From: a virus
Taxonomy: Duplodnaviria; Caudoviricetes
Length of the DNA stretch: 64,000 bases
IMG/VR virus record: IMGVR_UViG_3300033074_001484
Span: 64,001 to 128,000 of that record
Reading direction: 5' to 3' (one strand)
A program made the translations under genes and the position numbers. Below are positions 1 through 13,956 of the stretch, one piece after another (position 1 is the first letter of the stretch; every line of letters begins with the position of its first letter). The notes beneath the pieces were generated by a model, which was not told the DNA's origin, searched no databases, and worked only from the letters and a program-made list of their open reading frames with translations.

Positions 1-371
<371 letters not shown>

Positions 372-394
372 TTAAGTTAATAATCCGTGCCAGT

Positions 395-447
395 GTACAA
401 CAATGGCTATACGGTATTAAAACGACCGTTTAGCCCCATCGTTACCG
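395..447 (+). repeat. attC-like site 1
   Basis: GTACAAC-A...CTATACGG/CCGTTTAG arms...C-GTTACCG. Confidence 0.75.
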
Positions 448-723
448 GCAACGCTTCGACAACACATCATAAATGGACTTCAGTTTGATAGCAGCAAGCC
501 GGTGCTGTTCATTTACCGCAGCCGAACTATCTAACACTTTTCGCCTATCTTTCTTAGGCGTGCTTTTGGAAAACTGCCAATCTTCAGCAAAGCTGCTCGG
601 TGCGTTTCTAATAAGGCTTGCTGCTACCTTCAGTAACTCCGATAGGGCTATATCAACAGCACTGCCGGTAACAGGTGCATTGCTGCTATGTGGGCCGACG
701 GAAGTTGTTTCAACTGTATTCAT
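442..723 (-). CDS. hypothetical cassette protein; starts inside attC-like site 2
   Basis: 93-aa ORF; stop TAA is the TTA of the GTTACC core; ATG lies in the loop of the next site. Confidence 0.55.
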   Translation of the reverse strand: MNTVETTSVGPHSSNAPVTGSAVDIALSELLKVAASLIRNAPSSFAEDWQFSKSTPKKDRRKVLDSSAAVNEQHRLAAIKLKSIYDVLSKRCR

Positions 724-800
724 AAATTTTGCTTTTAGTTCTTAATTTGGGGCTGACGTGCAGGATTGCCCACACAGTCAGCAATGCTTCAACGTTAGCG
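666..800 (+). repeat. attC-like site 2
   Basis: CGGTAAC-A, arms GCATTGCTG..TGTGGGC / GCCCACA..CAGCAATGC, C-GTTAGCG. Confidence 0.8.
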
Positions 801-801
801 G

Positions 802-1215
802 CTATACTACCTGTCCCTTAAAATCTTCACCCCAATGATTATCCAAATCAGCATAGTCCAGTTTGACAAGCCGATTTCCATAATAACCATAGTTTGACAT
901 TGTATCATCACCGCCAAAATGTTTTTTAAACTCTGAAATATCTGTTATCGTTTCCCATTGTTCTCTTGTAATTGGCCTTGCTTTTTTCATAATCAAAATC
1001 CATCCACCCATCGAACACCAAACCACAGGACATAATAAATGAGATGTTCCTTTTTCAAACTTGCCACTATTAAACTTCCACGTTTGGTTTTCACTGATAT
1101 TACCAATTATGCCACGTAGAAAATGAGACCACTGACAAGTAAAGTTTGGTATCTTGACAACCACATTTTTAAACTCAATTACTATTCGTGTAACGCCTTT
1201 ACGATTTATTTTCAA
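802..1215 (-). CDS. minimal protein-kinase-like fold protein (cassette ORF)
   Basis: GVTR..VVVKIP, NxxE, LLCPV, ILIM, D-x4-NYG, KLDY motifs. Confidence 0.55.
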   Translation of the reverse strand: MKINRKGVTRIVIEFKNVVVKIPNFTCQWSHFLRGIIGNISENQTWKFNSGKFEKGTSHLLCPVVWCSMGGWILIMKKARPITREQWETITDISEFKKHFGGDDTMSNYGYYGNRLVKLDYADLDNHWGEDFKGQVV

Positions 1216-1241
1216 AGCTCACTACTGATTACCCGTACAGC

Positions 1242-1373
1242 CGCTAACATGAGTATTTATGTAAGTCGGGCTAACGGTAGTTAATTAATCGTTTTATCTT
1301 TATTCGGCTTTTGTTCAAGCATTGGGCTGACGAACATAAACTCCCGCCCTGCATAAATACCTGTTCGTTAGCA
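1242..1373 (+). repeat. attC-like site 3
   Basis: CGCTAAC-A, arms GTATTTATGTAAGTCGGG / CCCGCCCTGCATAAATAC, C-GTTAGCA. Confidence 0.8.
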
Positions 1374-1379
1374 CCAATA

Positions 1380-1613
1380 CTACGAATGTGCTTCAAAAAC
1401 TTGATTATCTCTTAATCGTATTCGCTCTCTTATAGTTTCGGCTAATCGTTCTACTTCATCAGAATAAGAACAAACAACTGTTCCATCATCCTTTTTTAAA
1501 ACTATCGGCATTGCATTTGCGTACAATTCAAATAATACTTTGAATAGTTCTTTTCTGTGGCTATCATTTAAAATAGCCTCTCTTTGTTTTTGGTAATACT
1601 TTTGGTCTTTCAT
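1380..1613 (-). CDS. hypothetical cassette protein
   Basis: 77-aa ORF bounded by GTTAGCACCA / TGGTGCTAAC. Confidence 0.7.
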   Translation of the reverse strand: MKDQKYYQKQREAILNDSHRKELFKVLFELYANAMPIVLKKDDGTVVCSYSDEVERLAETIRERIRLRDNQVFEAHS

Positions 1614-1648
1614 TCTATTTATATTTTGTTGTTAATAATCCGTACTGG

Positions 1649-1722
1649 TGCTAACAGCACATACACGCTATTTTGCCACGCTCAATCCAACGCTCACAGC
1701 GTGTATCTACAAAACGTTATGT
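1649..1722 (+). repeat. attC-like site 4
   Basis: TGCTAAC-AGCAC, arms ATACACGCT / AGCGTGTAT, AAAAC-GTTATGT. Confidence 0.8.
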
Positions 1723-1815
1723 ATTAGTGGCGGAGGTAGCTTCTCTGTTGTTCGGAATTAGTGTTGGGTTTACAGACCAAATGCAAAACCGAGCTTTAAT
1801 TTATCGCCACCTAAT

Positions 1816-1947
1816 ACATAACATTGTAAGCGTCAGTTGGGGCTATGTGCAGGTAATTACAACTTTTCCCCTATTCGGTTGTACAGGCAGATGGAATTGC
1901 CACCCCCTCGAATACCCAACCGAACGCTTATACAAGTGCCGTTATAG
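1816..1947 (+). repeat. attC-like site 5
   Basis: ACATAAC-A, arms TTGTAAGCGT..GTTGGG / CCCAAC..ACGCTTATACAA, C-GTTATAG. Confidence 0.75.
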
Positions 1948-1953
1948 GTAAGG

Positions 1954-2151
1954 CTATTCTACCACCTTAGAAATTTTTTCAAGTTTGGCATCTAATAATT
2001 GTTTGAAATAGTATTGATGCGTACAGTTTGGATTGGAACATTTTTTTATGTTCACTTCATTTGTTTCACCATCAAATTTATGGGTGGTTAATATTTCACC
2101 TTCATTGCATTTACCACACTTGAAAATGTGAGTGTTGTTTACTTTTGCCAT
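1954..2151 (-). CDS. small zinc-ribbon protein (cassette ORF)
   Basis: CGKC...CSNPNC; bounded by GTTATAGGTA / TACCTATAAC. Confidence 0.65.
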   Translation of the reverse strand: MAKVNNTHIFKCGKCNEGEILTTHKFDGETNEVNIKKCSNPNCTHQYYFKQLLDAKLEKISKVVE

Positions 2152-2178
2152 TCTTTTAAGTTTTGTGAGAAGCCCTAC

Positions 2179-2209
2179 CTATAACAGCACATAGGTAATA
2201 ACGTTATAG
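2179..2209 (+). repeat. attC-like site 6, internally deleted
   Basis: CTATAAC-AGCAC...AAC-GTTATAG spanning only 31 bp; arms lost. Confidence 0.65.
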
Positions 2210-2370
2210 CCAATGCTGAATAACCAACAGGGCTAAAAACATTCCTATAATAATTAACACACCTTTCATCCACCAAAAGGGATTCTCGGTTGTCTTTCTT
2301 TCTCGTTCTAAGTCAATCCACTTGTAATCTGTTTGTTTTTTCATAATTCAAAATTGGTTAAAAGCACTGG

Positions 2371-2414
2371 CTATAACACGGGATAAAACAACTGTTTAGC
2401 CCTGTCCATTATAG
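2371..2414 (+). repeat. attC-like site 7, degenerate
   Basis: CTATAAC-A start; right core mutated to ATTATAG; shortened. Confidence 0.55.
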
Positions 2415-2648
2415 GGCATTTACAATCCCACTTAGCTCATCAATCCAATCTTCGACCATTTTGAAAGCATAATCTCTTTCAGTCCAGTCATTTTTTTCAT
2501 CCCAATTTTTCATCCTTCCCTGTAACTCCTTTAGGAAGTCAAGGTCTCTTTTTGATTGCTCCCACTTTTCCATCTCAAAGTCGGATTTTTGTTTGAAGAC
2601 TACCTGTTTCAAGTCTTCAATTTCAGATTTTAGTTTATCGTTACTCAT
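2409..2648 (-). CDS. hypothetical cassette protein
   Basis: 79-aa ORF whose stop overlaps the degenerate core. Confidence 0.7.
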   Translation of the reverse strand: MSNDKLKSEIEDLKQVVFKQKSDFEMEKWEQSKRDLDFLKELQGRMKNWDEKNDWTERDYAFKMVEDWIDELSGIVNAL

Positions 2649-2939
2649 TTCGTTAAATTGACAATTATTAGTTCCAAAGCCGTCAATTCGTTAAGCACGA
2701 CAAAGAATATAAACCATAAAAACTACTCACTTTTAGCTTTCATATCGTGTTTATACCTTATATAAGAGTTCACAAAAAAGAATAGGCTTGTAAGTAGCCA
2801 AATCCAAGTCGTAAAATCTCTATCGTTTTCAATGTCGTATGCAAATGCAATCCATAGTAACACGCCTATTCCAAATAAAATGTATCTCACGATTCCGTAA
2901 TTTTTACAGGTCCATATTCAAGTCCGTTATGTACAAGCA

Positions 2940-3398
2940 CTACTTATCGTATCCTAAACGAACTGCTGTGTTTCTCATAATGTCGCAAAGCTGTTCAGAT
3001 AATTCAAACCGCCCTTTATTTATCTCAATGGATTTCATTATGTCTCCATCGGCGGTCCTTTCGGCGGCAGCTTTCCAATCGAAGAACATTTCCATCAAAT
3101 CAAATAAATCAAACCCATTTACACCATTTTCGTAATGCTCAGGGTGATGGCTGTTATTTTTGTAATGATGATCAAGGGCTACTTTCAACCCCTTCAAAAA
3201 CTCTTTGTACTCATCACTTCCATAAGTGCAATTTTTAAGTTTAGGCGTGTACTCATCAAATAATTCCTTTTCAGGGCTTTCCAGTTTTGAATTATCATGA
3301 ACATTGGCACGTCTAATCAATTCACTTGCTGCCTCTACCAATAATTGGTTTACTCTTTTGATGTGTAGTAGAGTATCTGCTGTGCTATCGTATTTCAT
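2940..3398 (-). CDS. HD-like metal-binding protein (DUF5662-like; cassette ORF)
   Basis: H..HDNSK..HHYKNNSHHPEH..EMFFDW; bounded by GTTATGTAC (2926) / GTACATAAC (3431). Confidence 0.7.
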   Translation of the reverse strand: MKYDSTADTLLHIKRVNQLLVEAASELIRRANVHDNSKLESPEKELFDEYTPKLKNCTYGSDEYKEFLKGLKVALDHHYKNNSHHPEHYENGVNGFDLFDLMEMFFDWKAAAERTADGDIMKSIEINKGRFELSEQLCDIMRNTAVRLGYDK

Positions 3399-3432
3399 AT
3401 TTATAAATTTTCGTTGTTAAACCCGTGTCAGT

Positions 3433-3494
3433 ACATAACACAGGCTATAAAATCATTTCGTTCCTCAACGCTTCATATACACAAAACGTTAGGC
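3433..3494 (+). repeat. rightmost attC-like site
   Basis: ACATAAC-ACAGG...AAAAC-GTTAGGC. Confidence 0.7.
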
Positions 3495-3595
3495 TTCATT
3501 TGCCCACGCACACAAACCCAACATTTTTCTTTTGACATGTGCCTAAATTTAATGGTTGACAATATACAAAACCATAACATGTGATTAAATGCTTA

Positions 3596-3823
3596 CTATA
3601 TAAAATCTTCAATTTCCGCCTCCCAGTCTATACAATCACCTTCCCGGATATTGTCCATCAACCATTGTAACGCCTCTGGATATTCTGATACGCCGCCAAG
3701 GTGAATGTCATTACCATTTTCATTTGCCTCGTGTATTTGATCATAAACGTCGTTTGGCATTTCGACATCACATAATGTTACTCGGTAGGATATTCTTACC
3801 GTTAAATCTTTTACTGTTGCCAT
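3596..3823 (-). CDS. hypothetical protein
   Basis: 75-aa acidic ORF, co-directional with neighbours. Confidence 0.65.
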   Translation of the reverse strand: MATVKDLTVRISYRVTLCDVEMPNDVYDQIHEANENGNDIHLGGVSEYPEALQWLMDNIREGDCIDWEAEIEDFI

Positions 3824-4013
3824 GCTTTATTCAGTTTTATTGTTGGTAATTTATACGACATAAAGGTTCCACTTTTCTTCAAAGAATTTCCAAAATCTCC
3901 AACAAGGTTCAAAATATCTATCCGATGAAAATTCTTTAACAATTTCCCCAAGGTTTTTCCGGCTATCACATTTTTTGCACGTAATCGATCCATAGCATTT
4001 TGTATTTGGAAAG

Positions 4014-4358
4014 CTACAACATAGCTGATTCAAATTCATCAACTGTGTCAAATCCAATATTAAACCCGATAAATTTTTTACCATCATGCACCAATTCATC
4101 GACACAGCCCTGCGTGTCAACATAGAAAATTTGCTGTCCGGAAAATCCTTCAAGGTTTAAAATTTCAGCAACAACTCGTTCGGCTGAATTTGTTATCGAC
4201 ATACCAACATTGGTATCTTCCAACAGTATAAATGCCGGATTTACAAGTTTTACAGTGTAGTTTTGCATAGCACAATTGAATTTAGCGGAAGTAGTGAGGA
4301 TCGAACTCACACACCAGTTTACCGGTGAACTCGGATTAGCAATCCGGCACTTTACCAT
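4014..4358 (-). CDS. hypothetical protein (true start may be the internal MQNY)
   Basis: SITNSAERVV..FYVDTQG..DEL resembles a small phage protein family. Confidence 0.6.
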   Translation of the reverse strand: MVKCRIANPSSPVNWCVSSILTTSAKFNCAMQNYTVKLVNPAFILLEDTNVGMSITNSAERVVAEILNLEGFSGQQIFYVDTQGCVDELVHDGKKFIGFNIGFDTVDEFESAML

Positions 4359-4377
4359 TCAGTCATACTTCCGAGCA

Positions 4378-4599
4378 TTATCCCCAAACAATACCGTTTA
4401 CACATGCACGGCAACGTTCATCATAGTTATCATCTGCCGCAGTGTATTCAGTTGACCGCCATGTTCGATAAAATCCGGTAGGAACCACGCCGGAACCACC
4501 ACATACCGGGCATTTATGGGGCATCGGCTTAATTCTCGAAGGTTCATACTTCGGCAATCGTGGGGTTAAAGTTTCTTCAACTTCAGTTAGTTTACACAT
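4378..4599 (-). CDS. small DnaJ-type zinc-finger protein
   Basis: CPVCGGSG...CRACVNG. Confidence 0.6.
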   Translation of the reverse strand: MCKLTEVEETLTPRLPKYEPSRIKPMPHKCPVCGGSGVVPTGFYRTWRSTEYTAADDNYDERCRACVNGIVWG

Positions 4600-4633
4600 A
4601 ACATTTGATTTAATTAGTTTAAATAATTCAGTG

Positions 4634-4707
4634 TAGGGATGAGCGGATTTGAACCGCTGACCTTCTTCTTATCAGAAAGATATTCTAACCAACTGAACTA
4701 CATCCCC
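4634..4707 (-). tRNA. tRNA-Ile(GAU)
   Basis: Cloverleaf GGGGATG/CATCCCT, loop CTGATAA, TTCAAAT. Confidence 0.92.
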
Positions 4708-4908
4708 ATTATTTTAATAGTTCCCTTATAAGCAATAACGCACCTATCACGTTAATTATAAGTAGTGCGGTTATTATTGTCACAGCATGTCGCGTGGTCA
4801 TGGTTGAATTTGTTATCATCCCAAATTCTGCCCCTATATTGACCAGCAGTAATTTGATCACTCGTCCAATTACAGTTTTTTGAATCATTCATACCCCTTG
4901 TTTTATTG

Positions 4909-4982
4909 TGGCCCGTGAAGGAATTGAACCTCCAACCTGTTGATTATGAGTCAACTGCTCTAACCTATTGAGCTAACGGACC
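4909..4982 (-). tRNA. tRNA-CAU, probably Ile2 (lysidine type)
   Basis: GGTCCGT/ACGGGCC, loop CTCATAA; body resembles ileX-type tRNAs. Confidence 0.85.
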
Positions 4983-4992
4983 TTAATAAATG

Positions 4993-5064
4993 CGGAGATT
5001 CGGGAATTGAACCCTGCCCTTGTGCTTTTCAGGCACACGCTCTCACCATGTGAGCTAAATCTCC
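4993..5064 (-). tRNA. tRNA-Phe(GAA)
   Basis: GGAGATT/AATCTCC, loop CTGAAAA. Confidence 0.9.
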
Positions 5065-5075
5065 TTGTTAACAAC

Positions 5076-5345
5076 TCAAACTTCTTCTTTTAAACGATCC
5101 ACCATAATATCCCGGCTTTCCCGGTCAATTATAAGTGATCCATCGGCACCTTCACGTGCTACCAATGCAAATGTAAGCATATTACCAACATCATGATGGG
5201 CCGATATTAGAGATTGGTTTAGATATTCTGAATACTCACGTTGCAATTCGTCATATTTAGAATGCCAATATTCAACCTCAGCGGTGAGATTGTCGACCTC
5301 ATTGCATAGTGAAAGAACCGTTCTGTCAAATGCATTTGTTTTCAT
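5076..5345 (-). CDS. hypothetical coiled-coil protein
   Basis: 89-aa ORF. Confidence 0.65.
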   Translation of the reverse strand: MKTNAFDRTVLSLCNEVDNLTAEVEYWHSKYDELQREYSEYLNQSLISAHHDVGNMLTFALVAREGADGSLIIDRESRDIMVDRLKEEV

Positions 5346-5350
5346 CGTAG

Positions 5351-5881
5351 TTATTTTTTACGTAGATTCTTTAGATCATTGTACCGATCTATAAATATCA
5401 TCTTTTGCAATGCCGAGGATGATATATATGGAGGTGTCATATGGTTGTTTAGCAAAAATTTTTCTTCATATTCCAATGCAGCATGGTCCGCAGCTTTCAC
5501 GGCAGGTGGCATGTCATCATCCAATCCAAATTTACGATATATAGCTTTCATCAAACTTTTTTCCAACTCAATGTACTGTGGAAGTTTCTGTTTTATTGGC
5601 GACGGCATATCAGTTAAATATGCTTCAGATGCATCGTGTAGTAATGCATGTAGTCGTATTTCTACCGGTTCATCCTGTACAAATTCTTCGCACCATATTG
5701 AATGTGCGGCAACTGAATAAAATACAGTCGTATGGCCGGAGAATCTGCATGTGTGACTAAGTGCATGTGCAATATCCACGATATTAATATGTTCCGGTTT
5801 AGGATCGAAAACATTTATAAATTTACCTGTAAATGTTTTGATCACACCAAGTTCATAAGCATTTATTTCGGAAATTTTCAT
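5351..5881 (-). CDS. HD-domain phosphohydrolase (YfbR-like 5'-deoxynucleotidase family)
   Basis: DIAHALS..RFSGH..YSVAAHS..LLHDASEAY..D..P.K. Confidence 0.9.
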   Translation of the reverse strand: MKISEINAYELGVIKTFTGKFINVFDPKPEHINIVDIAHALSHTCRFSGHTTVFYSVAAHSIWCEEFVQDEPVEIRLHALLHDASEAYLTDMPSPIKQKLPQYIELEKSLMKAIYRKFGLDDDMPPAVKAADHAALEYEEKFLLNNHMTPPYISSSALQKMIFIDRYNDLKNLRKK

Positions 5882-5901
5882 AATTAAAATTTATATGTGT
5901 A

Positions 5902-6144
5902 TTAATAAGCATGAACTATTGTGCCGCCAACTTGGTGCCCATGTACAAGTATCCCCTGTGCGATATGCCAACGGGTAGAACTGGACCATATCTTACCGGT
6001 CGAATCCACACATGTAATTCTATCGAACGACTTCGATACCAAAATTATTGGTGGTGTGAGTTTTGGAAACTCACAATCCGGGTTGTTGCATATGTCCGAT
6101 GTACAAGACGCCATCAGGCATAATATTAATAACAGTCTCAACAT
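5902..6144 (-). CDS. putative lipoprotein
   Basis: Signal peptide with lipobox MASC. Confidence 0.6.
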   Translation of the reverse strand: MLRLLLILCLMASCTSDICNNPDCEFPKLTPPIILVSKSFDRITCVDSTGKIWSSSTRWHIAQGILVHGHQVGGTIVHAY

Positions 6145-6407
6145 AACTCTAATTTAATTGTGTGTGGTATGATTCGGGTTGCGTTGTACCATACTTCATA
6201 AGGTATTTTCATACAATAATCGCAATCACATGGTTCCGGTTCTAACTCATAAGTACTCCATTGCTCTACATAGAATAATTCCTCAGCAATTATTTTCTTT
6301 TGAGCTAATCTCGCTTTACCTTTACTCGGAATTACTGCTGCGCATATACCGCATTTATCATGACCATGTATTTTTGACGCATTTTTACTCATTCCGTATG
6401 GTCGCAT
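6138..6407 (-). CDS. hypothetical protein
   Basis: 89-aa ORF with CxxC pairs. Confidence 0.55.
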   Translation of the reverse strand: MRPYGMSKNASKIHGHDKCGICAAVIPSKGKARLAQKKIIAEELFYVEQWSTYELEPEPCDCDYCMKIPYEVWYNATRIIPHTIKLELC

Positions 6408-6426
6408 TATTTCTCCTTTTTAATTC

Positions 6427-6519
6427 TGGTGCCTCCGGTAGGACTCGAACCTACAATGTTTACCCTGTGGGACTGGTTTTACAGACCAGTGCGAGACCAA
6501 CCATCCTCGCAGCGTCGGC
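6427..6519 (-). tRNA. tRNA-Tyr(GUA), atypical
   Basis: Loop CTGTAAA, long variable arm, encoded CCA; two acceptor mismatches and a 5-bp D stem. Confidence 0.8.
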
Positions 6520-6584
6520 ATAAAATGGCGGGAGCCATAACCATCCCGCCATTCCGTAAGGTTTCATTACATTGTCTTCTCTTT

Positions 6585-6860
6585 TTAGTTTTTAACTGGA
6601 ACTGGAAAATCAATTGCTGATAAAAGCGTCATCAATCCATAATCGGCTTCTTCCCAAGTATTTCCACGGATTGTGAGACCAAATGTACCAGTACCTAAAC
6701 ATGCTACAAAATTTGGACCGATCAATATCGGCCTTCTTGCCCAAAATTGCTTCAATTCTTTTTTTGAATATTCAAAACTTTGGAAGTGCTGCAAAAACGG
6801 ATACATATCATTATATGATGTAATCGTAATAACTGGTATTCTAACCATTTTAATTATCAT
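6585..6860 (-). CDS. hypothetical protein
   Basis: 91-aa ORF. Confidence 0.5.
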   Translation of the reverse strand: MIIKMVRIPVITITSYNDMYPFLQHFQSFEYSKKELKQFWARRPILIGPNFVACLGTGTFGLTIRGNTWEEADYGLMTLLSAIDFPVPVKN

Positions 6861-6973
6861 TGGTTTGTACTCCTGTCCGGACTCAAATCACATAACCGTT
6901 CTTAGCTGCTGGATTTTAAAAATACCACATGTCTGGCAATTCCACTACAGAAGGATATAACTTAAATTTTTTG

Positions 6974-7000
6974 GGTGTCTAACGGGACTGCTATAGACAC
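6974..7000 (-). pseudogene. collapsed tRNA remnant, probably His
   Basis: GTGTCTA-TAGC fused directly to AGTCCCGT-TAGACAC-C; D loop through T loop deleted; C73. Confidence 0.6.
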
Positions 7001-7002
7001 AG

Positions 7003-7077
7003 TGCCCACAGAGGGACTCGAACCCCCAAAATACCTGTTCCTAAGACAGGCGTGTATTCCAATTCCACCATGTGGGC
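7003..7077 (-). tRNA. tRNA-Leu(UAG) with short variable loop
   Basis: GCCCACA/TGTGGGC, loop CTTAGGA, 75 nt. Confidence 0.88.
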
Positions 7078-7082
7078 AATAA

Positions 7083-7745
7083 TTAATACATTAGTTCCGG
7101 GTCTTGCACAAACCCGTAATTTTTAAGTTTTGCGATTGTTGAACCAGTTGAAATTGAACCAATTTTTTGTATCAACTTAATCATATACTCAGGTGTGATT
7201 TCCCAATTGCGTTTTTGAAATGACATCATCCTGTTGATTAGCTTGTATAAATCTTTCGAGTCAAATCCATCCGCAGGTATAAGCCGTCTCGCCATAATAT
7301 CATCTATAACTGTATATGATGGACATATAATAGTGTTGGTTAAACATCGAACAGCAACTTGATTACATGTTAGATCAAACCCATTTAACAGTGTTAAAAC
7401 ATCATCATCAAGAGTTAACTTGTTTACACTGTCACCTTTATCAATAAATTGTATTTTATATGTTTTAGAATCGTGCTTACACGTGAACTCATCCATTACC
7501 CCTCCACAGCTTCGAGTTAATTTACAATCATATTTGCGGCAAAATTCGTGTATAAGCTGCACATCATTTCTATTGGATGATGTATAAAATACATCAACAT
7601 CGTTATATTGTACCCCCAATATACTATCACGGATTGCGCCACCGGCAACCACTATGGTTTTACTATCTAAGTTACCCAACACAAATGCTAAAAAGTTGTC
7701 AATTTTAACAGTTTGAGGGATGAGCTTATCATACGTTATAAACAT
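7083..7745 (-). CDS. class II nucleotidyltransferase (CCA-adding/poly(A) polymerase head-like)
   Basis: VAGGAIRD..DVDVF..FDLTCNQ. Confidence 0.75.
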   Translation of the reverse strand: MFITYDKLIPQTVKIDNFLAFVLGNLDSKTIVVAGGAIRDSILGVQYNDVDVFYTSSNRNDVQLIHEFCRKYDCKLTRSCGGVMDEFTCKHDSKTYKIQFIDKGDSVNKLTLDDDVLTLLNGFDLTCNQVAVRCLTNTIICPSYTVIDDIMARRLIPADGFDSKDLYKLINRMMSFQKRNWEITPEYMIKLIQKIGSISTGSTIAKLKNYGFVQDPELMY

Positions 7746-7778
7746 ATTATTAAAATTTTATGTGAACAATCAAGTTAG

Positions 7779-7852
7779 TAGTTGTGGATGGATTTGAACC
7801 ACCGACATCCTGTTTGTAAAACAGGTGCTCTGACCCCCTGAGCTACACAACC
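7779..7852 (-). tRNA. tRNA-Val(UAC)
   Basis: GGTTGTG/CACAACT, loop TTTACAA. Confidence 0.9.
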
Positions 7853-7854
7853 AA

Positions 7855-8409
7855 TTAGTTATATTTATCAACTGAAAACTTAAAATGCGGATATTTTCGC
7901 CTTAGTCCCGGAAGTATTATTTTATCAATTATTTGATACAGATTCATGCTCTCAATTCGTTTAAACACCCTAAACACATTTGGATACGATATAAGTGTTT
8001 TAATTACCTGATATTTATCCTTCTCAAAGAATTTTTTGGTAAAAACAATCTCTTTGATATATTTTGATGCCGGGCGTATGCCGTCCCCGAACCGATCACC
8101 CGACCACATCTCTTCTGCCTCGTCCCCCCAATCACTTCCCGGCATACTATGTCCTGCATTGATGGGTTCGGACTTATACACGTCGGACATTTTGTCCCCA
8201 TCCAATGCAATGCGAATAGACATATCTGATCCGATTTTGCGACGAGGGTCAATATGAAATAATTTATCTCGCGTGGTAGATAAACGGTCCTTTCCCCATA
8301 TTAAATCTTGTTGTAATATACGAGGGAGTGCTTCAAACGATGTGAAGTGGTATACGATGCCAACGTGTTTTCGCTCATTTAACAATTGATACAGTTTTGT
8401 TAACTTCAT
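7855..8409 (-). CDS. ADP-ribosyltransferase-fold protein
   Basis: Start moved to MKLTKLYQLLNE because the longer ORF overlaps tRNA-Ser; VYHFT..LSTTRD..DEAEE. Confidence 0.6.
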   Translation of the reverse strand: MKLTKLYQLLNERKHVGIVYHFTSFEALPRILQQDLIWGKDRLSTTRDKLFHIDPRRKIGSDMSIRIALDGDKMSDVYKSEPINAGHSMPGSDWGDEAEEMWSGDRFGDGIRPASKYIKEIVFTKKFFEKDKYQVIKTLISYPNVFRVFKRIESMNLYQIIDKIILPGLRRKYPHFKFSVDKYN

Positions 8410-8422
8410 ATCACTCCAATTG

Positions 8423-8515
8423 CGATGGACAGAGGACTCGAACCCCAACCAAGCTACTAACCCGGTCCACCAGTTTTCAAGACTGGGGCAGCACCCACTG
8501 GCCGCATTATCCATC
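8423..8515 (-). tRNA. tRNA-Ser(UGA), atypical D arm
   Basis: GATGGAT/GTCCATC, G73, loop CTTGAAA, long variable arm. Confidence 0.82.
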
Positions 8516-8524
8516 AAACATACA

Positions 8525-8833
8525 TTAATGGCATGTATTTATGCAAGTATCGCACAATATATATGCCGACTGATATACTGGAACTGTGTCACACATTCCC
8601 GATGACAGTTCAACACCTTCAAATCGGGAACTGTTTATTTTTTGAGTTATCCGAATTTTCTCAGATGTGTGCGTATCAATTACAATATCACCAACTTCAA
8701 TTCCATTAATCGGAAATTGAGAGAGTGGATGATATTCACTATCGATACACCCCATAAAAATCAAAAAACTAATTAATGTTAATAGTCTCATTTTATACTC
8801 CATTTTCAAATAGTACCTACAAATATATATCAA
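8525..8833 (-). CDS. putative lipoprotein (start probably at MRLL)
   Basis: MRLLTLISFLIFMGC lipobox-like signal. Confidence 0.55.
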   Translation of the reverse strand: MIYICRYYLKMEYKMRLLTLISFLIFMGCIDSEYHPLSQFPINGIEVGDIVIDTHTSEKIRITQKINSSRFEGVELSSGMCDTVPVYQSAYILCDTCINTCH

Positions 8834-8844
8834 AACAAGTTAAT

Positions 8845-8918
8845 TGGAAGACATAGATGGAATCGAACCATCGTATCAGGTTTTGCAGACCTGCACCTAA
8901 CCACTCGGCCATATGTCC
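8845..8918 (-). tRNA. tRNA-Cys(GCA)
   Basis: Loop CTGCAAA, U73, encoded CCA. Confidence 0.92.
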
Positions 8919-9269
8919 AGTTTCAAATTGTTTTTAAATTAAAAAAAAGGGGTGGGGTTAGAATTTTTAAGACCTCGGTCACAGGAGTGTTAGCATATTT
9001 CAGGATTGCTCCATTGTCGCCGTCCCCCGGCCCCTTTTAATTGACGGTAAGAGCGAATCAAGAGTGTTTTATCCTGTGGCTACAAAGAAACACACAACGT
9101 TCGCCCGGATTTTTAGATTCGCTTCACCATCATTTTTGTTTAGGCTACTTTATCCGCACTTCTTTGGCGACCACCCCAACCAGTTTGCATCAATTTCACC
9201 AAGGTAGCATAACATCTTCATTGGTTAGAATCCGACTTCTGCTGCCTATCTTTTTTTATTAACATTTTG

Positions 9270-9355
9270 TACCGCTGACAGGACTTGAACCTGCACGACC
9301 ATTACTGGTCGTTGGGGCTTAAACCCAATGTGTCTGCCATTTCCACCACAGCGGC
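9270..9355 (-). tRNA. tRNA-Leu(UAA)
   Basis: GCCGCTG/CAGCGGT, loop TTTAAGC, long variable arm. Confidence 0.92.
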
Positions 9356-9442
9356 AAATAATCAGATCACAAATCTCCGACATTAAACGGGACTCTGCCA
9401 AACATTTGATTAGATATTTTTTTATATAATATGTTAAATTGG

Positions 9443-9976
9443 TTATTTGATAACGTTAATTACCGCATCATTAAATATGACAAGAATATCGTCATTCACA
9501 TCATTGACCACCCGCATTCCGGAAATCCCGGCTCTTGAAAGAAATTCACTAACATCTTTAAATGATTTCAGATGGTTGCGGTAAATTCGCATCAGGAATT
9601 CATAGAATTCATATACATCAGATAAAACAGAGAATTTGCCATACTTTGGATTATTGAAAAACTCATCGGCCTTGAACCATGACATAGATTCCAACTTCAA
9701 TTGCCTGTATATTTTTTTCAATTGAGTTGGCGTGACTTTCTTATATAATATATCTGCTGAAGGGTCTATGGTCACTTGCGTTACAACTGGACCATACGTT
9801 TTAGCCCGATTCGGATCGGAAATAAAATATAAACCATACCCATGATAATTCGATATAGAACGACCCCCCTGCCCTATTTTAGACATTGAGAATTTCTTTA
9901 TTGGCATAGATGAGCCATGATACCACGTCATTTTTGATGTGGTATTAATACTCTCAAGAATATGCACTAATTGCAT
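9443..9976 (-). CDS. ADP-ribosyltransferase-like protein (ART-PolyVal-like)
   Basis: WYHGS..F..GYGLYFI..A..YG..LVIFN pattern. Confidence 0.7.
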   Translation of the reverse strand: MQLVHILESINTTSKMTWYHGSSMPIKKFSMSKIGQGGRSISNYHGYGLYFISDPNRAKTYGPVVTQVTIDPSADILYKKVTPTQLKKIYRQLKLESMSWFKADEFFNNPKYGKFSVLSDVYEFYEFLMRIYRNHLKSFKDVSEFLSRAGISGMRVVNDVNDDILVIFNDAVINVIK

Positions 9977-10185
9977 TACACTGAATCTGTCTTGTCCTTG
10001 GCAGCTTTAGTTGCCAATGCGGTGGCCTTTACCTCAGAAGGGTCTCGGCGATTGGTTTTTTCCCGAAAATGTTTTTGCTGAATTTCACTTGGAAACTTTT
10101 TCCACAACCAATGCTCGATTATTTCACCCTTTTTGTAACGGCTCCAGTCAGATGTGCATTCGTAAAGTTTCATATAATCCTCCAT
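9976..10185 (-). CDS. hypothetical protein
   Basis: 69-aa ORF with a TATTTAT motif upstream. Confidence 0.6.
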   Translation of the reverse strand: MEDYMKLYECTSDWSRYKKGEIIEHWLWKKFPSEIQQKHFREKTNRRDPSEVKATALATKAAKDKTDSV

Positions 10186-10360
10186 AATGTTTGTAAATAT
10201 AAATAGTGAAAATATTGATCAATCGTCAAATTCATGATTGCATTTGTTGCATATATACTTATAACCCATGTATTTGCCAATATCCACGACCACATGATGG
10301 CGGACATGAAAATACATACACCACACAAGTTTCAATGTTTTCATGATTAAATGTGTTTTG

Positions 10361-10436
10361 CGGTGTATATGGGAATTGAACCCATCTGATGTCCTGCGTG
10401 ACAGGCAGGTGGCCACACCATGCAGCCCCATACACC
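10361..10436 (-). tRNA. tRNA-Asp(GUC)
   Basis: GGTGTAT/ATACACC, G73, loop CTGTCAC. Confidence 0.9.
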
Positions 10437-10451
10437 TAAAATTACGGTTAG

Positions 10452-10523
10452 TAGTGCCGACGGGAATCGAACCCGCGTCACCGGATTGAAAGTCCGATAT
10501 CTTAACCACTTGACCACGGCACC
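10452..10523 (-). tRNA. tRNA-Glu(UUC)
   Basis: GGTGCCG/CGGCACT, loop CTTTCAA. Confidence 0.92.
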
Positions 10524-10526
10524 AAA

Positions 10527-10790
10527 TTAATCCTCATCGTAATGTTTATATAATCCTTCCATATACCCAATTATCCGCATCATACGTATTTTGACATACG
10601 TATTTTGAATTTGACGGGCTTTTTCGGCAAATTCTTTAGAAAACGCATCAAGTTCTTCTTTGTTAGATATTTTTTCTACACGTTTTTCAAATTCGTCCAA
10701 AATATCCCATTCTTTTTTTGCACGGCGGGAAACACTATACATTACCCACCCAAATAGTATAGTAACAATTACGATGATTAAGATTTCCAT
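10527..10790 (-). CDS. membrane-anchored hypothetical protein
   Basis: Start MEILIIVIV (longer ORF overlaps tRNA-Gly); N-terminal TM helix. Confidence 0.65.
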   Translation of the reverse strand: MEILIIVIVTILFGWVMYSVSRRAKKEWDILDEFEKRVEKISNKEELDAFSKEFAEKARQIQNTYVKIRMMRIIGYMEGLYKHYDED

Positions 10791-10810
10791 AGTCAATTGT
10801 AATTTAAAAT

Positions 10811-10884
10811 TGGAGCAGGTGCTGAGAATCGAACTCAGATATTCGGTTTGGAAGACCGACACATTACCGTTATGCTACACCTGC
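10811..10884 (-). tRNA. tRNA-Gly(UCC)
   Basis: GCAGGTG/CACCTGC, loop CTTCCAA, encoded CCA. Confidence 0.93.
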
Positions 10885-10890
10885 AAAACG

Positions 10891-10961
10891 CTGTCGCAAT
10901 AGGACTCGAACCTATAACAACTGATTAACAATCAGACGTGATACCATTTCACCATACGACA
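10891..10961 (-). tRNA. tRNA-Asn(GUU)
   Basis: TGTCGTA/TGCGACA, G73, loop TTGTTAA. Confidence 0.88.
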
Positions 10962-10969
10962 TCCCCGGC

Positions 10970-11128
10970 TTATTCGGGAGCTACTTCACTCGTCGAATCA
11001 ACAGTGACTGCCGGAGTATCGGAACTTACCGGCGCGTCGGGAGACGATTCAGGTGTTGATGTACAGGACACCATAGCCATGATAATGATGACCCCCAACA
11101 TACAATACAAAACGTTCTTCATAAACAT
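10970..11128 (-). CDS. small Ser/Pro/Thr-rich lipoprotein
   Basis: Own translation MFMKNVLYCMLGVIIIMAMVSCTSTPESSPDAPVSSDTPAVTVDSTSEVAPE; lipobox MVSC. Confidence 0.65.
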   Translation of the reverse strand: MFMKNVLYCMLGVIIIMAMVSCTSTPESSPDAPVSSDTPAVTVDSTSEVAPE

Positions 11129-11162
11129 AAATACCTCAATTTGGTTTGTTAATAAAAACTCG

Positions 11163-11233
11163 ACGCTCTGATGGGGATCGAACCCATATCATGAAATCCA
11201 AAGTTTCAGATGTTACCATTACACCACAGAGCA
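11163..11233 (-). tRNA. tRNA-Gln(UUG)
   Basis: TGCTCTG/CAGAGCG, loop CTTTGGA. Confidence 0.9.
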
Positions 11234-11238
11234 ATTTG

Positions 11239-11346
11239 TGACCTGAGTTGGACTCGAACCAACGTACTCGTGTTAGGTTCGCCCAAGATCATTAGGGAAG
11301 CCCGACCTAACCGTCAGTGTGTTTTATCCCGTTAAACTACCAAGTC
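11239..11346 (-). ncRNA. tRNA-like RNA with an expanded anticodon domain
   Basis: Intact acceptor, D and T arms; about 55-nt insert containing a GTTAGGT/ACCTAAC stem. Confidence 0.7.
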
Positions 11347-11380
11347 GCGGCTTCTTCTCATGCATGAGTTTTTTTAATTG

Positions 11381-11453
11381 CTCCGGCGACAGGACTCGAA
11401 CCTGCAACCTATTGATTACAAATCAATTGCACTACCAATTGTGCTACCCCGGA
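11381..11453 (-). tRNA. tRNA-Thr(UGU) with an Asn-like acceptor end
   Basis: Loop TTTGTAA; TCCGGGG/CGCCGGA, G73. Confidence 0.85.
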
Positions 11454-11531
11454 ATGGACAGGCATTTTTTATTGTTCTTTATGCGGCTACCCTGAATCCC
11501 CACACATCAGTTGAGAGCGACCCAACATTCG

Positions 11532-11605
11532 TGGATCAACCGGGACTTGAACCCGGACCATCTACCTTGCAAAGGTAGCGCATTATCCATTTTTGCTATT
11601 GACCC
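11532..11605 (-). tRNA. tRNA-Ala(UGC)
   Basis: G3:U70 pair, loop TTTGCAA. Confidence 0.92.
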
Positions 11606-11613
11606 ATTTTTTG

Positions 11614-11686
11614 TTGCAAATGTCGGACTCGAACCGCAATACTAAGTCCCAAACTTAGCGTGTTACCTGATTACACTACATTCGCA
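11614..11686 (-). tRNA. tRNA-Pro(UGG), possible 8/4 fold
   Basis: Loop TTTGGGA; acceptor TGCGAATG/CATTTGCA, short T stem. Confidence 0.8.
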
Positions 11687-11709
11687 ATATATTCTTTTAT
11701 TCTTTTTTG

Positions 11710-11781
11710 TACCTTCGGAAGGAATCGAACCCTCATTGCAGGAGTAGAAATCCTATGTCTTATCCGTTAGACGACGAAGGC
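11710..11781 (-). tRNA. tRNA-Arg(UCU)
   Basis: GCCTTCG/CGAAGGT, loop TTTCTAC. Confidence 0.9.
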
Positions 11782-11812
11782 AGTTGCTCTATCCTGCTGA
11801 GCTATGGGAGTG
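11776..11812 (-). pseudogene. 5'-half remnant of a second Arg-like tRNA
   Basis: CTCCCATAGCTCAGCAGGATAGAGCAACT runs into GCCTTC, the start of tRNA-Arg(UCU). Confidence 0.6.
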
Positions 11813-11851
11813 AAATAATCTACTTCAATTACCGGCAAGCTCACCCATTTG

Positions 11852-11951
11852 TAGCAACGGAGAGAATCGAACTCCCATGTCTTAAAGTTTTTACATTATT
11901 ATACTTTAAAACCTATACAAGTAATGAGCTTGTATCCACCAGAGCGTTGCT
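11852..11951 (-). ncRNA. D-arm-less tRNA-like RNA (CAU) with a giant variable arm
   Basis: AGCAACG/CGTTGCT acceptor; TACAAG-CTCATTA-CTTGTA arm; canonical T arm. Confidence 0.7.
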
Positions 11952-11964
11952 ATATTTATTTTTG

Positions 11965-12069
11965 TAGTCAGGGCTGGATTTGAACCAGCAATGGACAGTT
12001 CGGCGCCTGTCCTCGAAAACCACGGTCTGTCTCCGTTTATCTAGCGTCTACCAATTCCGCCACCTGACT
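11965..12069 (-). ncRNA. Leu-like tRNA mimic with a non-canonical anticodon arm
   Basis: AGTCAGG/CCTGACT; Leu-type D arm GGCGGAATTGGTAGACGC; loop AGACAGA lacks U33. Confidence 0.7.
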
Positions 12070-12325
12070 ATTTTAGTTGTGAATGAAATGCTTTATCAGT
12101 TCCATCAAACTCAACGGCTCTATAGTACGTGTTTATCCCTCCTATCATCTTTCCATCGTCCTTATGGCAGTCACAGTCTTTAAAACATTGACAACCCTTA
12201 TAACGGAAGATGTATCTTTCATCTTTTTCCCACTTTCTAAAGTTTTGTCCATTGTGCTCAATAATTGGTAATGAGTTTAGAAACTCATTTGATACCAATC
12301 GTAATGGATTAAGTATCTTCTTCAT
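12068..12325 (-). CDS. hypothetical protein
   Basis: Start MKKILNP; CQCFKDCDC cluster. Confidence 0.55.
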   Translation of the reverse strand: MKKILNPLRLVSNEFLNSLPIIEHNGQNFRKWEKDERYIFRYKGCQCFKDCDCHKDDGKMIGGINTYYRAVEFDGTDKAFHSQLK

Positions 12326-12341
12326 TGTTTGATAGTTTAAA

Positions 12342-12568
12342 AACCAACCCGCCCACTCCAATTGTGGAGTATTTTAGTATGTCCAAGAATCGGCATTTGC
12401 TCAAATTCTCTGCCTCTGTCAACGGCAAGTTTAACGACTTATTACAAAACTAAAATACATTCATCCAGACCTAAACACCTCTTGGATGGTGTTGGTAACA
12501 ACCTTTCTAAAGGGCATTAATATCCAGTTACGACTGGTGTTACCTGTCTGTAATGAATCGGGTTGGTT
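12342..12568 (-). ncRNA. candidate multi-branched structured RNA (about 227 nt)
   Basis: Perfect 10-bp closing helix AACCAACCCG/CGGGTTGGTT plus several nested stems; no credible ORF. Confidence 0.55.
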
Positions 12569-13012
12569 ATTTTAAGTTAGAAAAAAATCCCATATAAAGA
12601 AGCCTTTTATATGGGCAAACTGGTACCACCCAGTTTCATGGTACTTCAGCAAGGTTCTGCCTAACAAACCTAATAATATTTTCGGCAGTTGGTTATTATT
12701 TCACCCGGCTTGTAAAGATGAATTTTACCCAATTACGAAGTCACTTTATAATACTCAAACAGCCAAAGTGACAAATCGCATTTGGTAGATGCGTTTTCTG
12801 TTTGAGGTTTAATATTTGATCAGAGTAAAAAAACAAATTTCAAAGAACAAAACCTCTGATTAAACCACCCCGCTTCGGTCTATCCACACGGTGGTTTTTT
12901 TATTCTTAGGCACGGAAAAAAATTGCAGAACTGTCGTGTTTGCCTTTTAAATTCAGCCGGTTATACCCTGACAGTTGGGATGCGGTTAAACCCCGCTCTT
13001 TGCCACTCTGCA

Positions 13013-13272
13013 GTGAACTACCCATTTGCTAAAGACAAATGGGCTTCGGGCTTCACGGACGACTGCTGATTGCTCAGTCTAACATCATCTCCACCCGTGT
13101 AATCGCCAGTTCCTGACGATATTGTTTTTAATCCTTCTTTCAGAATGTTCTTTGCAGCATTTAAATCACGGTCTAAAACGTGTCCGTTTTTGCAAGTCCA
13201 TTCTCTTATTGAAAGATTTAAGTCTTGATTTATCCAACCACACTCACAACAGGTTTTACTTGATGGGTAAAA
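13013..13272 (-). mobile_element. tnpB: IS200/IS605-family remnant: tnpB 3' fragment with right end / omega-RNA region
   Basis: Own translation [38 protein letters not shown]; subterminal hairpin CCCATTTG/CAAATGGG ending TTCAC. Confidence 0.88.
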
Positions 13273-13324
13273 GCATATAAATCACTATATAAGATATCAA
13301 CGTTATTGTCAATGGTATAGTGTC

Positions 13325-13531
13325 TTAATTCAAGTTTTTTTGCATATCTTTTGCTATCTGGGCATACTCATACGCCTCATCTTCAACACAGGCTTTAATA
13401 AATGCCTGTAAATCTTCATCTGTTGCATCTGTTAAAAACTGTACGACCTCATCTTTATTTTTGAATAATACGGAAGGTCTACAAAGCTCTTCATACCGTT
13501 CAATCAATTGTGATAACGTCATTTTTTTCAT
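13325..13531 (-). CDS. hypothetical protein with a UVR-like C-terminus
   Basis: Start MKKMTLSQLIE (longer ORF overlaps tRNA-Arg); EDEAYEYAQIAKD. Confidence 0.6.
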   Translation of the reverse strand: MKKMTLSQLIERYEELCRPSVLFKNKDEVVQFLTDATDEDLQAFIKACVEDEAYEYAQIAKDMQKNLN

Positions 13532-13542
13532 ATATCTATTTT

Positions 13543-13617
13543 TGGTACCCTTGGAAGGACTCGAACCCTCATCTTCGGAGCCGAAATCCGGCATTCTATC
13601 CATTGAACTACAAAGGC
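13543..13617 (-). tRNA. tRNA-Arg(UCG)
   Basis: Loop TTTCGGC, encoded CCA. Confidence 0.9.
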
Positions 13618-13665
13618 AAATGATGTCCGATGAATACATTGCCGACACACTACAATATATTTACC

Positions 13666-13837
13666 GGACCCGCACAATACACATATTTTGTGTTACGACA
13701 TACTGTTTCCAGCATGAAGGCACAAGGAAGGGTTTCTAATCCGCTTCTGAATCTTCACGAACTCCTGTGTGCTGCCGAGCTTTTTAAAAAAACTCTCATG
13801 GTCACCCGCAACCTAAACGGTTAAGTTGGTAGGGGCC
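13666..13837 (-). ncRNA. candidate structured RNA (about 170 nt)
   Basis: Closing GGCCC/GGGTC and five hairpins including CATGCTG-GAAA-CAGTATG. Confidence 0.45.
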
Positions 13838-13877
13838 AATAACGCTAAAATGTCAAACAACTTTTATACAACTTTTG

Positions 13878-13953: not shown

Positions 13954-13956
13954 ATG

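Follow-up and report, generated by a model that had tools for sequence, protein, structure and literature searches.

A recombinase-less array of integron-like gene cassettes in a large phage, probably serviced by a XerA-like host enzyme

The left end of the 64,000-nt stretch of phage DNA analysed here (the window) is built of small units, each bracketed by its own pair of complementary boxes. We consider it likely that positions 1-3498, together with at least 0.5 kb further to the left, form a recombinase-less array of mobile cassettes belonging to an integron-like system of Bacteroidota and phages, with a XerA-like host enzyme as the putative catalyst. The window certainly represents a large virulent-type phage, with DNA polymerase B, RNR, DnaB, RecA, gp32, tape measure and 22 tRNAs among its gene content. 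In window coordinates, the array consists of the following features.

1-440, minus strand: unit U0, partial, running off the left edge; ORF 3-368 for an Rv2179c-like 3′-5′ exoribonuclease, plus leader; TAAC-box GTGTACAAC at 393-401, palindrome interior at 402-440
393-450, plus strand: site A, 58 nt; TAAC-box, imperfect palindrome, GTTA-box
441-793, plus strand: unit U1; pair GTTACCGGCA/TGCCGGTAAC (441/663); ORF 442-723 on the minus strand, 93 aa, no family
663-803, plus strand: site B, 141 nt, long class; 19-bp stem with a bulge, 4 versus 2 unpaired nt
794-1366, plus strand: unit U2; pair GTTAGCGGCT/AGCCGCTAAC (794/1239); ORF 802-1215 on the minus strand, phrog_4301, function unknown
1239-1376, plus strand: site C, 138 nt, long class; folds
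1367-1715, plus strand: unit U3; pair GTTAGCACCA/TGGTGCTAAC (1367/1646); ORF 1380-1613 on the minus strand, 77 aa
1646-1727, plus strand: site D, 82 nt; conserved interior element, present in 87 public contigs
1716-1940, plus strand: unit U4, an ORF-less cassette; pair GTTATGTATTAG/CTAATACATAAC (1716/1811), 107 nt apart
1811-1950, plus strand: site E, 140 nt, long class; fold -25.3 kcal/mol, 6 versus 0 unpaired nt
1941-2202, plus strand: unit U5; pair GTTATAGGTA/TACCTATAAC (1941/2176); ORF 1954-2151 on the minus strand, 65 aa
2176-2212, plus strand: site F, 37 nt, truncated D-type; begins AACAGCACATA, like D
2203-2418, plus strand: unit U6; pair GTTATAGCCA/TGGCTATAAC (2203/2368); ORF 2204-2344 on the minus strand, 46 aa
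2368 to ~2418: site G, decayed; A-type interior, ATT in place of GTT
2409-2925, minus strand: two small ORFs, 2409-2648 (79 aa) and 2723-2890 (55 aa, membrane-like)
2926-3487, plus strand: unit U9; pair GTTATGTAC/GTACATAAC (2926/3431); ORF 2940-3398 on the minus strand, DUF5662, 152 aa
3431-3498, plus strand: site I, decayed, weak fold; last site of the array

A sequence-only reading of this DNA had described a cassette-like array of bracketed units, and this description is confirmed. All seven of its box pairs are exact reverse complements, and together they tile 441-3439 without overlap. Counting pairs of at least 9 nt lying 60-700 nt apart, we found seven within 381-3500, whereas 2000 first-order Markov shuffles averaged 0.28 and never exceeded 3. 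Taken over the entire window, their number stays near the chance level (26 versus ~19), and what stands out is therefore the local tiling. The first 4 kb contain 12 copies of CGTTA and the rest about two per 4 kb, which places the array within the left 3.5 kb of the window. The array sites were not singled out by a generic inverted-repeat scan of the whole window, and an Rfam search of 1-4300 at E ≤ 1 returned no match, the attC model being absent from Rfam.

Strand-polar imperfect palindromes with an AAC/GTT base are formed by six of nine spacers, with long imperfect hairpins at sites A to E and surplus unpaired bases of the same polarity from A to F. Site A folds at -14.1 kcal/mol on the gene-sense strand, with an outer stem of 14 bp and 3 versus 1 unpaired nt. 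The earlier count of about nine palindromes thus holds for six clear sites (A-F); about three others are degenerate, namely G, I and position 2926, where a GTT box stands alone. The GTTAGGCTTCA box at 3488 is partnerless. The two ORFs of 2409-2925, which lack recognisable boxes, are either decayed units or fixed genes.

On the plus strand each unit reads GTTA-box, cargo, TAAC-box, palindrome, which is the classical cassette geometry. As had been proposed, the start of the unit is complementary to its own inverse core (7/7 units) and the crossover falls on the GTT side. All array ORFs in the window run antisense to this geometry, some of them beginning within a palindrome; the U1 ORF begins with an ATG (723) in the loop of site B and ends within the GTTA-box. 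We dropped the converse assignment, in which the ORF-sense strand is the attC "top strand" and the ORF stops in the TAAC box, on account of two ORF starts inside the upstream palindrome; it is also contradicted by two phage contigs (L011 versus L012) in which the palindrome moves with the ORF after it. The predicted continuation of the array to the left was borne out by an identical public contig (L004), which supplies the remainder of the exonuclease unit and one further unit bounded by the perfect pair GTTATATGCA/TGCATATAAC. The U0 exoribonuclease is assigned to PF16473, and the full 161-aa protein in that contig to phrog_2259. Exact look-ups for the leftward extension, with a 40-mer in IMG/VR, a 35-mer in metagenome contigs and the 77-aa ORF, gave no match.

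The system is not peculiar to this phage, and the same type of unit is present in Bacteroidota chromosomes. A 22-mer from site D was found in 24 viral, 56 metagenome and 7 genome contigs, six of these seven being Bacteroidota MAGs; site D had no match in GenBank phage records. In loci carrying this 22-mer, ORF-bracketing GTTA.../...TAAC pairs are the rule: among 68 sites, the 9-nt GTTA box has an exact downstream partner in 41 (control 4) and the TAAC box an exact upstream partner in 22 (control 4). The boxes share the consensus TAAC|G and T|GTTA and are variable thereafter, mostly GTTAT or GTTAG followed by C or T. They pair over 9 bp, followed by a conserved mismatch of 1-2 nt and a further 4-12 bp. 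Folding is stronger than in shuffled controls (median z -3.4; 115 sites, 81 loci), and the gene-sense strand outfolds the antisense strand in 83% of sites. The arm adjoining the crossover carries the surplus of unpaired bases in 86 of 93 sites (mean 5.0 versus 1.9). As in site B, the palindrome contains an ORF start in 33 of 71 long sites, and a leader of ~30 nt is common to different ORFs. The cassette proteins of the window, the exonuclease excepted, have no relatives in the fetched loci.

The enzyme had been suggested to lie beyond the window or to be borrowed from the host, and our data favour the latter, a recombinase gene in the left part of the phage genome being a conceivable alternative. 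Five phage records, of which three are 98-100% complete, contain no match to PF00589 or PF01797, and neither a tyrosine recombinase nor a Y1 transposase was seen among the 58 larger window ORFs scanned. The candidate comes from Flavobacteriales, the one order in which the link between recombinase and array was sampled: chromosomes of this order encode a XerA-like recombinase of 390 aa, ~100 nt before the first cassette. On one chromosomal contig (L096), where H+-PPase and YceI lie alongside, the cassette has a D-type site and follows a recombinase of 396 aa; homologues of this enzyme occur in 110 of 151 Flavobacteriales genomes. Of 23 loci sufficiently long to tell, 15 have a perfect frame ~100 nt after the recombinase gene; upstream of the gene, one is present in 3 of 30. 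The downstream frame sits behind a conserved TATAAGnnA|GTTA junction, and the tiled arrays that follow reach five units. Host cassette ORFs are sense in 14 of 15 cases, in contrast to the antisense phage ORFs, which leaves room for another process that might maintain the phage arrays. When the host recombinase was searched against all phage and metagenome loci by tblastn, only partial matches were returned, on a 1.6-kb contig (L088) and as a 138-aa fragment (L039); neither was counted as a phage recombinase.

The array had also been proposed to be shufflable, and cassette order among related phage contigs points to mobility of whole units. Three contigs (L011, L046 and L012) are 100% identical in the units that they share and differ by entire units rather than having identical content. 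All of their junctions switch within TAAC(GT), with unrelated sequence past it, and the palindromes flanking the junctions are unrelated beyond 5-8 nt. Internal homology breakpoints, 74 in all, cluster on one side: 47 are no more than 12 nt from a ...TAAC end, compared with 8 near a GTTA start, and the crossover is resolved only to the shared core. Runs holding the phage also contain contigs in which the neighbour changes precisely at 793 or at 1366 (C|GTT), the latter junction giving U3 a different upstream neighbour; a public-run contig joins 816 to 1229 in the region of U2. These alternative junctions are taken from assembled contigs, and paralogous arrays or co-occurring relatives could be their source. 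Core-limited junctions could also result from microhomology-driven template switching at hairpins.

Template switching of this kind, or homologous recombination, would suffice if the units were modules like the PeSLs of T4-type phages, in which palindromes combining terminator and promoter lie between early genes and no site-specific enzyme acts. PeSLs (promoter-early stem-loops) and their mini-circles have been described in that phage group (Arbiol et al. 2010, PMC2839356; Comeau et al. 2014, PMC4122927). The resemblance is considerable: both concern small accessory genes of large lytic phages, each following a stem-loop regulatory block, in a hyperplastic region beside tRNA genes that is shuffled gene by gene. 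Here, too, every gene is preceded by its palindrome, the start codon falls inside about half of the long ones, different ORFs share the ~30-nt leader and the five phage records lack a recombinase. PeSL exchange, however, uses extended homology between conserved repeats, whereas the switches here fall within 5-8 shared bases flanked by unrelated palindromes. Homologous recombination also leaves unexplained why the inverted boxes co-vary across each gene, and the same boxes bound sense cassettes in hosts at a fixed distance from a tyrosine recombinase. We therefore regard PeSL-like modules as improbable.

It is more improbable still that these are true attC sites of ordinary integrons (a classical CALIN) serviced by some host's IntI integrase, as the sequence-only reading had supposed. 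The AAC/GTT-based imperfect palindromes and the complementarity of the cassette ends speak for it. In the folded bottom strand of attC, however, it is the arm away from the cleaved core that carries the extrahelical bases, whereas here the surplus is on the crossover arm. The canonical attC layout has two such bases (PMC3053210). The boxes follow GTTA(T/G)NNN, with their conserved mismatch, and deviate from the integron core GTTRRRY / RYYYAAC. Nor is the linked host recombinase of the IntI type: it reaches 194 bits against TIGR02249, short of the cut-off of 265 and split over two stretches, and its alignment with VchIntIA (2a3v) falls into two pieces that skip the IntI-specific region. Its best family is NF040815 (XerA/integron integrase) and its best solved relatives are archaeal XerA (4a8e, 5hxy). 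According to IntegronFinder 2.0, moreover, Bacteroidetes have almost no integrons.

A published test bears directly on this alternative. The earlier statement that no phage cassette system was known is outdated, as Qi et al. 2023 (PMC9892861) reported attC clusters (CALINs) in virulent phages, including a member of the present site family. Polaribacter phage P12002L has two predicted sites, which were read as ordinary attC (PMC9892861). One of them, P12002L_attC1, aligns full-length with site A and is homologous to it; HattCI predicted it as attC, yet it alone of six phage sites gave no recombinants with IntI1, the other five being recombined (PMC9892861). This result runs against the suggestion that an IntI-like enzyme acts on the sites. 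Like the present array, the P12002L cluster places its site between small genes of a lytic Bacteroidota-type phage without an integrase. The present array differs in having at least nine sites arranged with tiled pairs of boxes, signs that units are exchanged, and another host enzyme.

Two further alternatives appear highly implausible. Single-strand transposition by an HUH enzyme (IS200/IS605- or RAYT-like), cutting after TAAC beside hairpins, would account for breakpoints next to hairpins after a fixed tetranucleotide and recalls the TTAC target of IS608, but no Y1 HUH transposase of the IS200/IS605 or REP/RAYT kind was found in the five phage records (PF01797) or the window scans, and the array-linked host gene is a tyrosine recombinase. 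A role confined to RNA, in which each mRNA pairs its 5′ end with its 3′ end and the palindromes act as terminators unconnected with mobility, would fit the better folding of the gene-sense strand and the position of the boxes at the ends of each gene's transcript region, but host cassettes with ORFs in the opposite orientation are delimited by the same boxes, and presence or absence of units with core-limited junctions is a DNA-level event.

In the cassette system that we favour, units would be gained, lost and replaced by crossover within the short TAAC|GT core (C|GTTA on the plus strand). An excised unit would be a circle, in which one long hairpin site is closed by the unit's own two boxes, and this would be why the boxes co-vary across each gene. 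The palindrome is strand-polar and ends directly before the next GTTA, and since phage cargo is antisense to the geometry, it comes to lie upstream of its gene. Long sites thereby hold the start codon and presumably the promoter as well, which would make each unit self-expressing. Catalysis would fall to the XerA-like tyrosine recombinase that in Flavobacteriales adjoins arrays with the same sites, and the phage array is probably serviced by this host enzyme, perhaps through folded single strands.

This arrangement parallels that of sedentary chromosomal integrons in several respects. Both have arrays of mostly single-gene units, each ending in an imperfect palindrome with an AAC...GTT base and having its first bases complementary to its own inner box; in both, the crossover lies on the GTT side and the palindrome travels with the preceding cassette on the top strand. 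As in VCRs, site interiors are homogeneous among different cassettes, and the hosts resemble integrons in having a tyrosine recombinase that adjoins an attI-like junction. In contrast to integrons, the enzyme is XerA-like, is extended by 115 aa at its N terminus, lacks the IntI-specific insert and is encoded in the direction of the array; no integrase was found in the phage (larger window ORFs and five phage records); and the phage cassettes are antisense with internal starts, whereas integron cassettes carry promoterless sense ORFs expressed from Pc. Elements that exploit Xer likewise borrow a host recombinase for mobile DNA. Unlike the 28-nt dif-like duplex site of Xer/XerA, however, the sites here are long folded palindromes in arrays, and the enzyme bears an extra N-terminal domain and adjoins the arrays.

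More broadly, we lean towards the view that Bacteroidota possess a widespread, IntI-independent analogue of the integron, comprising the XerA-like recombinase, a TATAAGnnA|GTTA entry site and TAAC/GTTA hairpins. Its cassettes would circulate between host chromosomes and many unrelated lytic phages, whose recombinase-free, inverted, self-expressing arrays would be reshuffled by the host enzyme during infection. If this mechanism is correct, it would constitute a second, structurally distinct integron-type route of gene capture in a phylum nearly devoid of classical integrons, with lytic phages as carriers, and would open a route for genes to move between phages and their hosts. Two further features would find an explanation: the habitual breaks of assemblies in such regions, and the unit-by-unit swapping of small accessory genes by these phages, probably including genes for host takeover or anti-defence. 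The sites and the candidate enzyme are defined sufficiently for direct testing.

Relatives reached through a YfbR-like protein (~50% identity) had no tiled pairs and were uninformative on the array. In both runs holding the phage, site D is 3-8x deeper than its flanks. Parts of 1-4200 are uncovered in wastewater runs X1 and X2, and one wastewater run contains a related phage whose sequence departs from the window to the left of 3597. A 12-kb contig spanning the left flank is present in one public run.

The window comes from a virulent-type phage with all of its genes on the - strand, among them those for family B DNA polymerase, ribonucleotide reductase, DnaB, RecA, gp32, tail tube proteins and tape measure. 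Its leftmost 3.5 kb, adjoining the tRNA region (22 tRNA genes at 4285-14026), holds the cassette array that the sequence-only reading had described. All seven of the complementary box pairs proposed there are exact reverse complements, and they tile 441-3439; pairs of ≥9 nt lying 60-700 nt apart number 7 in the region, and averaged 0.28, with never more than 3, in 2000 Markov shuffles of it. CGTTA is ~5-fold enriched in the first 4 kb, with no other enriched stretch in the window. Each of the palindromic spacers A-E folds as a long imperfect hairpin with an AAC/GTT base, site F is a truncated copy of the site D type, and sites G and I are decayed. In an identical public contig (L004), the array extends leftward through the remainder of an exonuclease unit and one further perfectly boxed unit. 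One sequencing run also contains a 12-kb contig spanning the left flank. The exact tiled pairs, folding spacers and leftward continuation together confirm the array.

One unit, 1716-1940, lacks an ORF. Its 12-nt boxes lie only 107 nt apart, with extended pairing of 17 bp and one bulge, and would form a hairpin of their own; an empty cassette and a small RNA are both possible readings.

The interior of site D is widespread: a 22-mer from it has exact matches in 24 IMG/VR, 56 metagenome and 7 genome contigs, 6 of the latter being Bacteroidota MAGs. In all matching contigs it forms the core of the same ~75-nt element between small ORFs. At 41 of 68 sites, the exact reverse complement of the 9 nt that begin with GTT recurs within 2.5 kb downstream (4 in the control direction); the 9 nt ending in AAC are partnered upstream at 22 of 68 (control, 4), many loci being short. 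Box pairing follows a fixed pattern of 9 bp, a conserved 1-2-nt mismatch and a further 4-12 bp, and the boxes fall into a few recurrent classes common to different ORFs. The stretches between adjacent perfect frames (exact box pairs) supplied 115 distinct sites, either 40-90 or 110-130 nt long, with a median fold z of -3.4 relative to shuffles. In 86 of the 93 sites with a good outer stem, one and the same arm carries the surplus unpaired bases, a rule that window sites A-F also obey, indicating that the sites have a fixed polarity. Such sites may act as folded single strands.

Comparison of three phage contigs from different samples (L011, L046 and L012) points to what moves as a unit. Shared units are 100% identical, and the contigs differ by whole units inserted or replaced. 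The additional unit of L012 consists, in gene sense, of a palindrome and the boxed ORF after it, and the palindrome that follows is the single palindrome of L011. At each of the six junctions among these contigs, identity changes over within TAAC or TAACGT, past which the sequences are unrelated. Across all loci, 47 of 74 internal homology breakpoints (≥95% identity) fall within 12 nt of the ...TAAC end, their distribution peaking at exactly 0, and only 8 of 74 near the GTTA start. These data bear out the proposed cassette geometry of GTTA-box, cargo, TAAC-box and palindrome on the strand antisense to the phage genes, with crossover at GTT. Integron cassettes likewise carry attC at their 3′ end and cross over at GTT, the same geometry as that of the window + strand units. 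A unit that circularised would have its own two boxes closing its palindrome, which would explain why the boxes co-vary; circular intermediates are inferred.

Phage ORFs run opposite to this geometry, placing each palindrome upstream of its gene. Of 71 long sites, 33 have an ORF starting within the loop (median position, 55 nt ahead of GTT), and so do the L004 long site and window site B, where the ATG is at 723. The palindromes may possess promoter activity. At ~4786 in L011 and ~6466 in L046, which are related, a shared non-array sequence ending ...TATATTACGTA/GTTA on the top strand (/ denotes the junction) is joined to different cassettes.

For the window phage itself, sequencing-run evidence takes the form of assembled contigs. 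In both runs holding the phage, the array is where contigs break, and the depth of the site D interior is 3-8 times that of its flanks. In other contigs from these two runs, alternative sequence is joined exactly at 793 and 1366 (C/GTT), the borders of unit U2 (794-1366); in one contig 816 is fused to 1229, and the U2 box ends are retained with the U2 ORF absent or replaced. Two independent assemblies also terminate within the array. The breaks, depth and alternative joins fit variable or multi-copy units, and fall short of proof of recombination.

No member of the tyrosine recombinase, serine recombinase or Y1 transposase families was found among the 58 window ORFs scanned, nor any match to PF00589 or PF01797 in five phage records bearing the element, three of which are rated 98-100% complete (41, 47 and 100 kb). 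A Flavobacteriales MAG contig (L096), which further encodes H+-pyrophosphatase and YceI, carries a 396-aa tyrosine recombinase (L096:1315-2505) ending ~95 nt ahead of a cassette followed by a D-type site (one sharing the conserved interior of site D). This enzyme passes NF040815 (XerA/integron integrase; 232 bits versus a cut-off of 220) and falls below the integron integrase model TIGR02249 (194 versus 265), matching it in two stretches. Among solved structures, archaeal XerA proteins are closest to it; VchIntIA (2a3v) aligns in two pieces, indicating that the enzyme lacks the IntI-specific region. Of 151 genomes sampled from the same order, 110 encode a full-length homologue, often at a contig end. 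Of 23 loci that extend ≥700 nt downstream of the recombinase gene, 15 have a perfect 8-nt frame starting ~100 nt after it; upstream of the gene, frames occur at 3 of 30 loci. The downstream frames are preceded by a conserved TATAAGnnA/GTTA junction, which the L011/L046 junction resembles, and the latter may be a phage-borne entry site. Host arrays are tiled, with up to five units, and their palindromes start TAAC-AGCAC, matching the window + strand. We infer that the host recombinase acts on phage DNA.

Cassette ORFs in host arrays are sense in 14 of 15 cases, the exception being the first cassette of L096. This cassette (L096:2598-2975), nearest the recombinase, has an antisense 82-aa ORF and shares its leader class (GTTATCGGCTGCCC...) and D-type site with viral and metagenome contigs; its appearance is that of a phage-style cassette taken up at the entry site. 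Another D-type site lies in a 1.6-kb metagenome contig that encodes a partial tyrosine recombinase (L088:2-415), 34% identical to the host enzyme and directed away from the array; this contig may represent a second arrangement of the system.

Integrase-less attC clusters have been reported in virulent phages (Qi et al. 2023, PMC9892861). One of these sites, P12002L_attC1 (Table S3), comes from Polaribacter phage P12002L, where it is flanked on both sides by methyltransferase genes. It aligns with window site A over its full length, and the adjoining methyltransferase gene is boxed by GTTAGGCAC and GTGCCTAAC. P12002L_attC1 was predicted by HattCI only, and was the one of six sites without IntI1 recombination (PMC9892861). 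Of the proposed integron reading, the cassette geometry stands. The integrase domain, core consensus, placement of extrahelical bases, ORF orientation and the published, negative IntI1 assay on a homologue set the element apart from a classical integron. Because it fails these defining tests, we class the element as a variant of the integron kind rather than a classical integron. According to IntegronFinder 2.0, Bacteroidetes have almost no integrons, and the literature searched contained no description of an Xer-like, array-linked system in Bacteroidota. The nearest phage analogue is the PeSL mini-circles of T4-type phages, which differ in arising through homologous recombination of repeated sequences.

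The cassette-borne, Rv2179c-like exoribonuclease gene (window 3-368, L004:440-925) shares 76-78% DNA identity with genes of ~150-kb Enterococcus phages, which is unusual for phages with hosts so distant; the 100-kb phage record behind L025 encodes a 55% identical protein. To the right of 3597, a wastewater-run relative of the window phage matches the backbone genes at 95-99% identity; its sequence on the left side is unrelated, and it carries ~390 additional bases near 3970 (3968-3976), marking the right border of the variable region. Directly right of the array, the tRNA cluster is entirely on the - strand with small ORFs interspersed. Taken as a set, the ORFs at 5351-35079 have Pfam matches to an intein splicing domain, a Zeta-toxin/AAA_33 kinase-like domain, an ART-PolyVal ADP-ribosyltransferase domain, a poly(A) polymerase head domain and a block of glycosyltransferases, methyltransferases and an NAD-dependent epimerase. 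An 810-aa ORF (21466-23898) has only weak PHROG matches (DNA polymerase, endonuclease, GtrB-like), and the ORF at 35082-36590 matches a glycosyltransferase PHROG.
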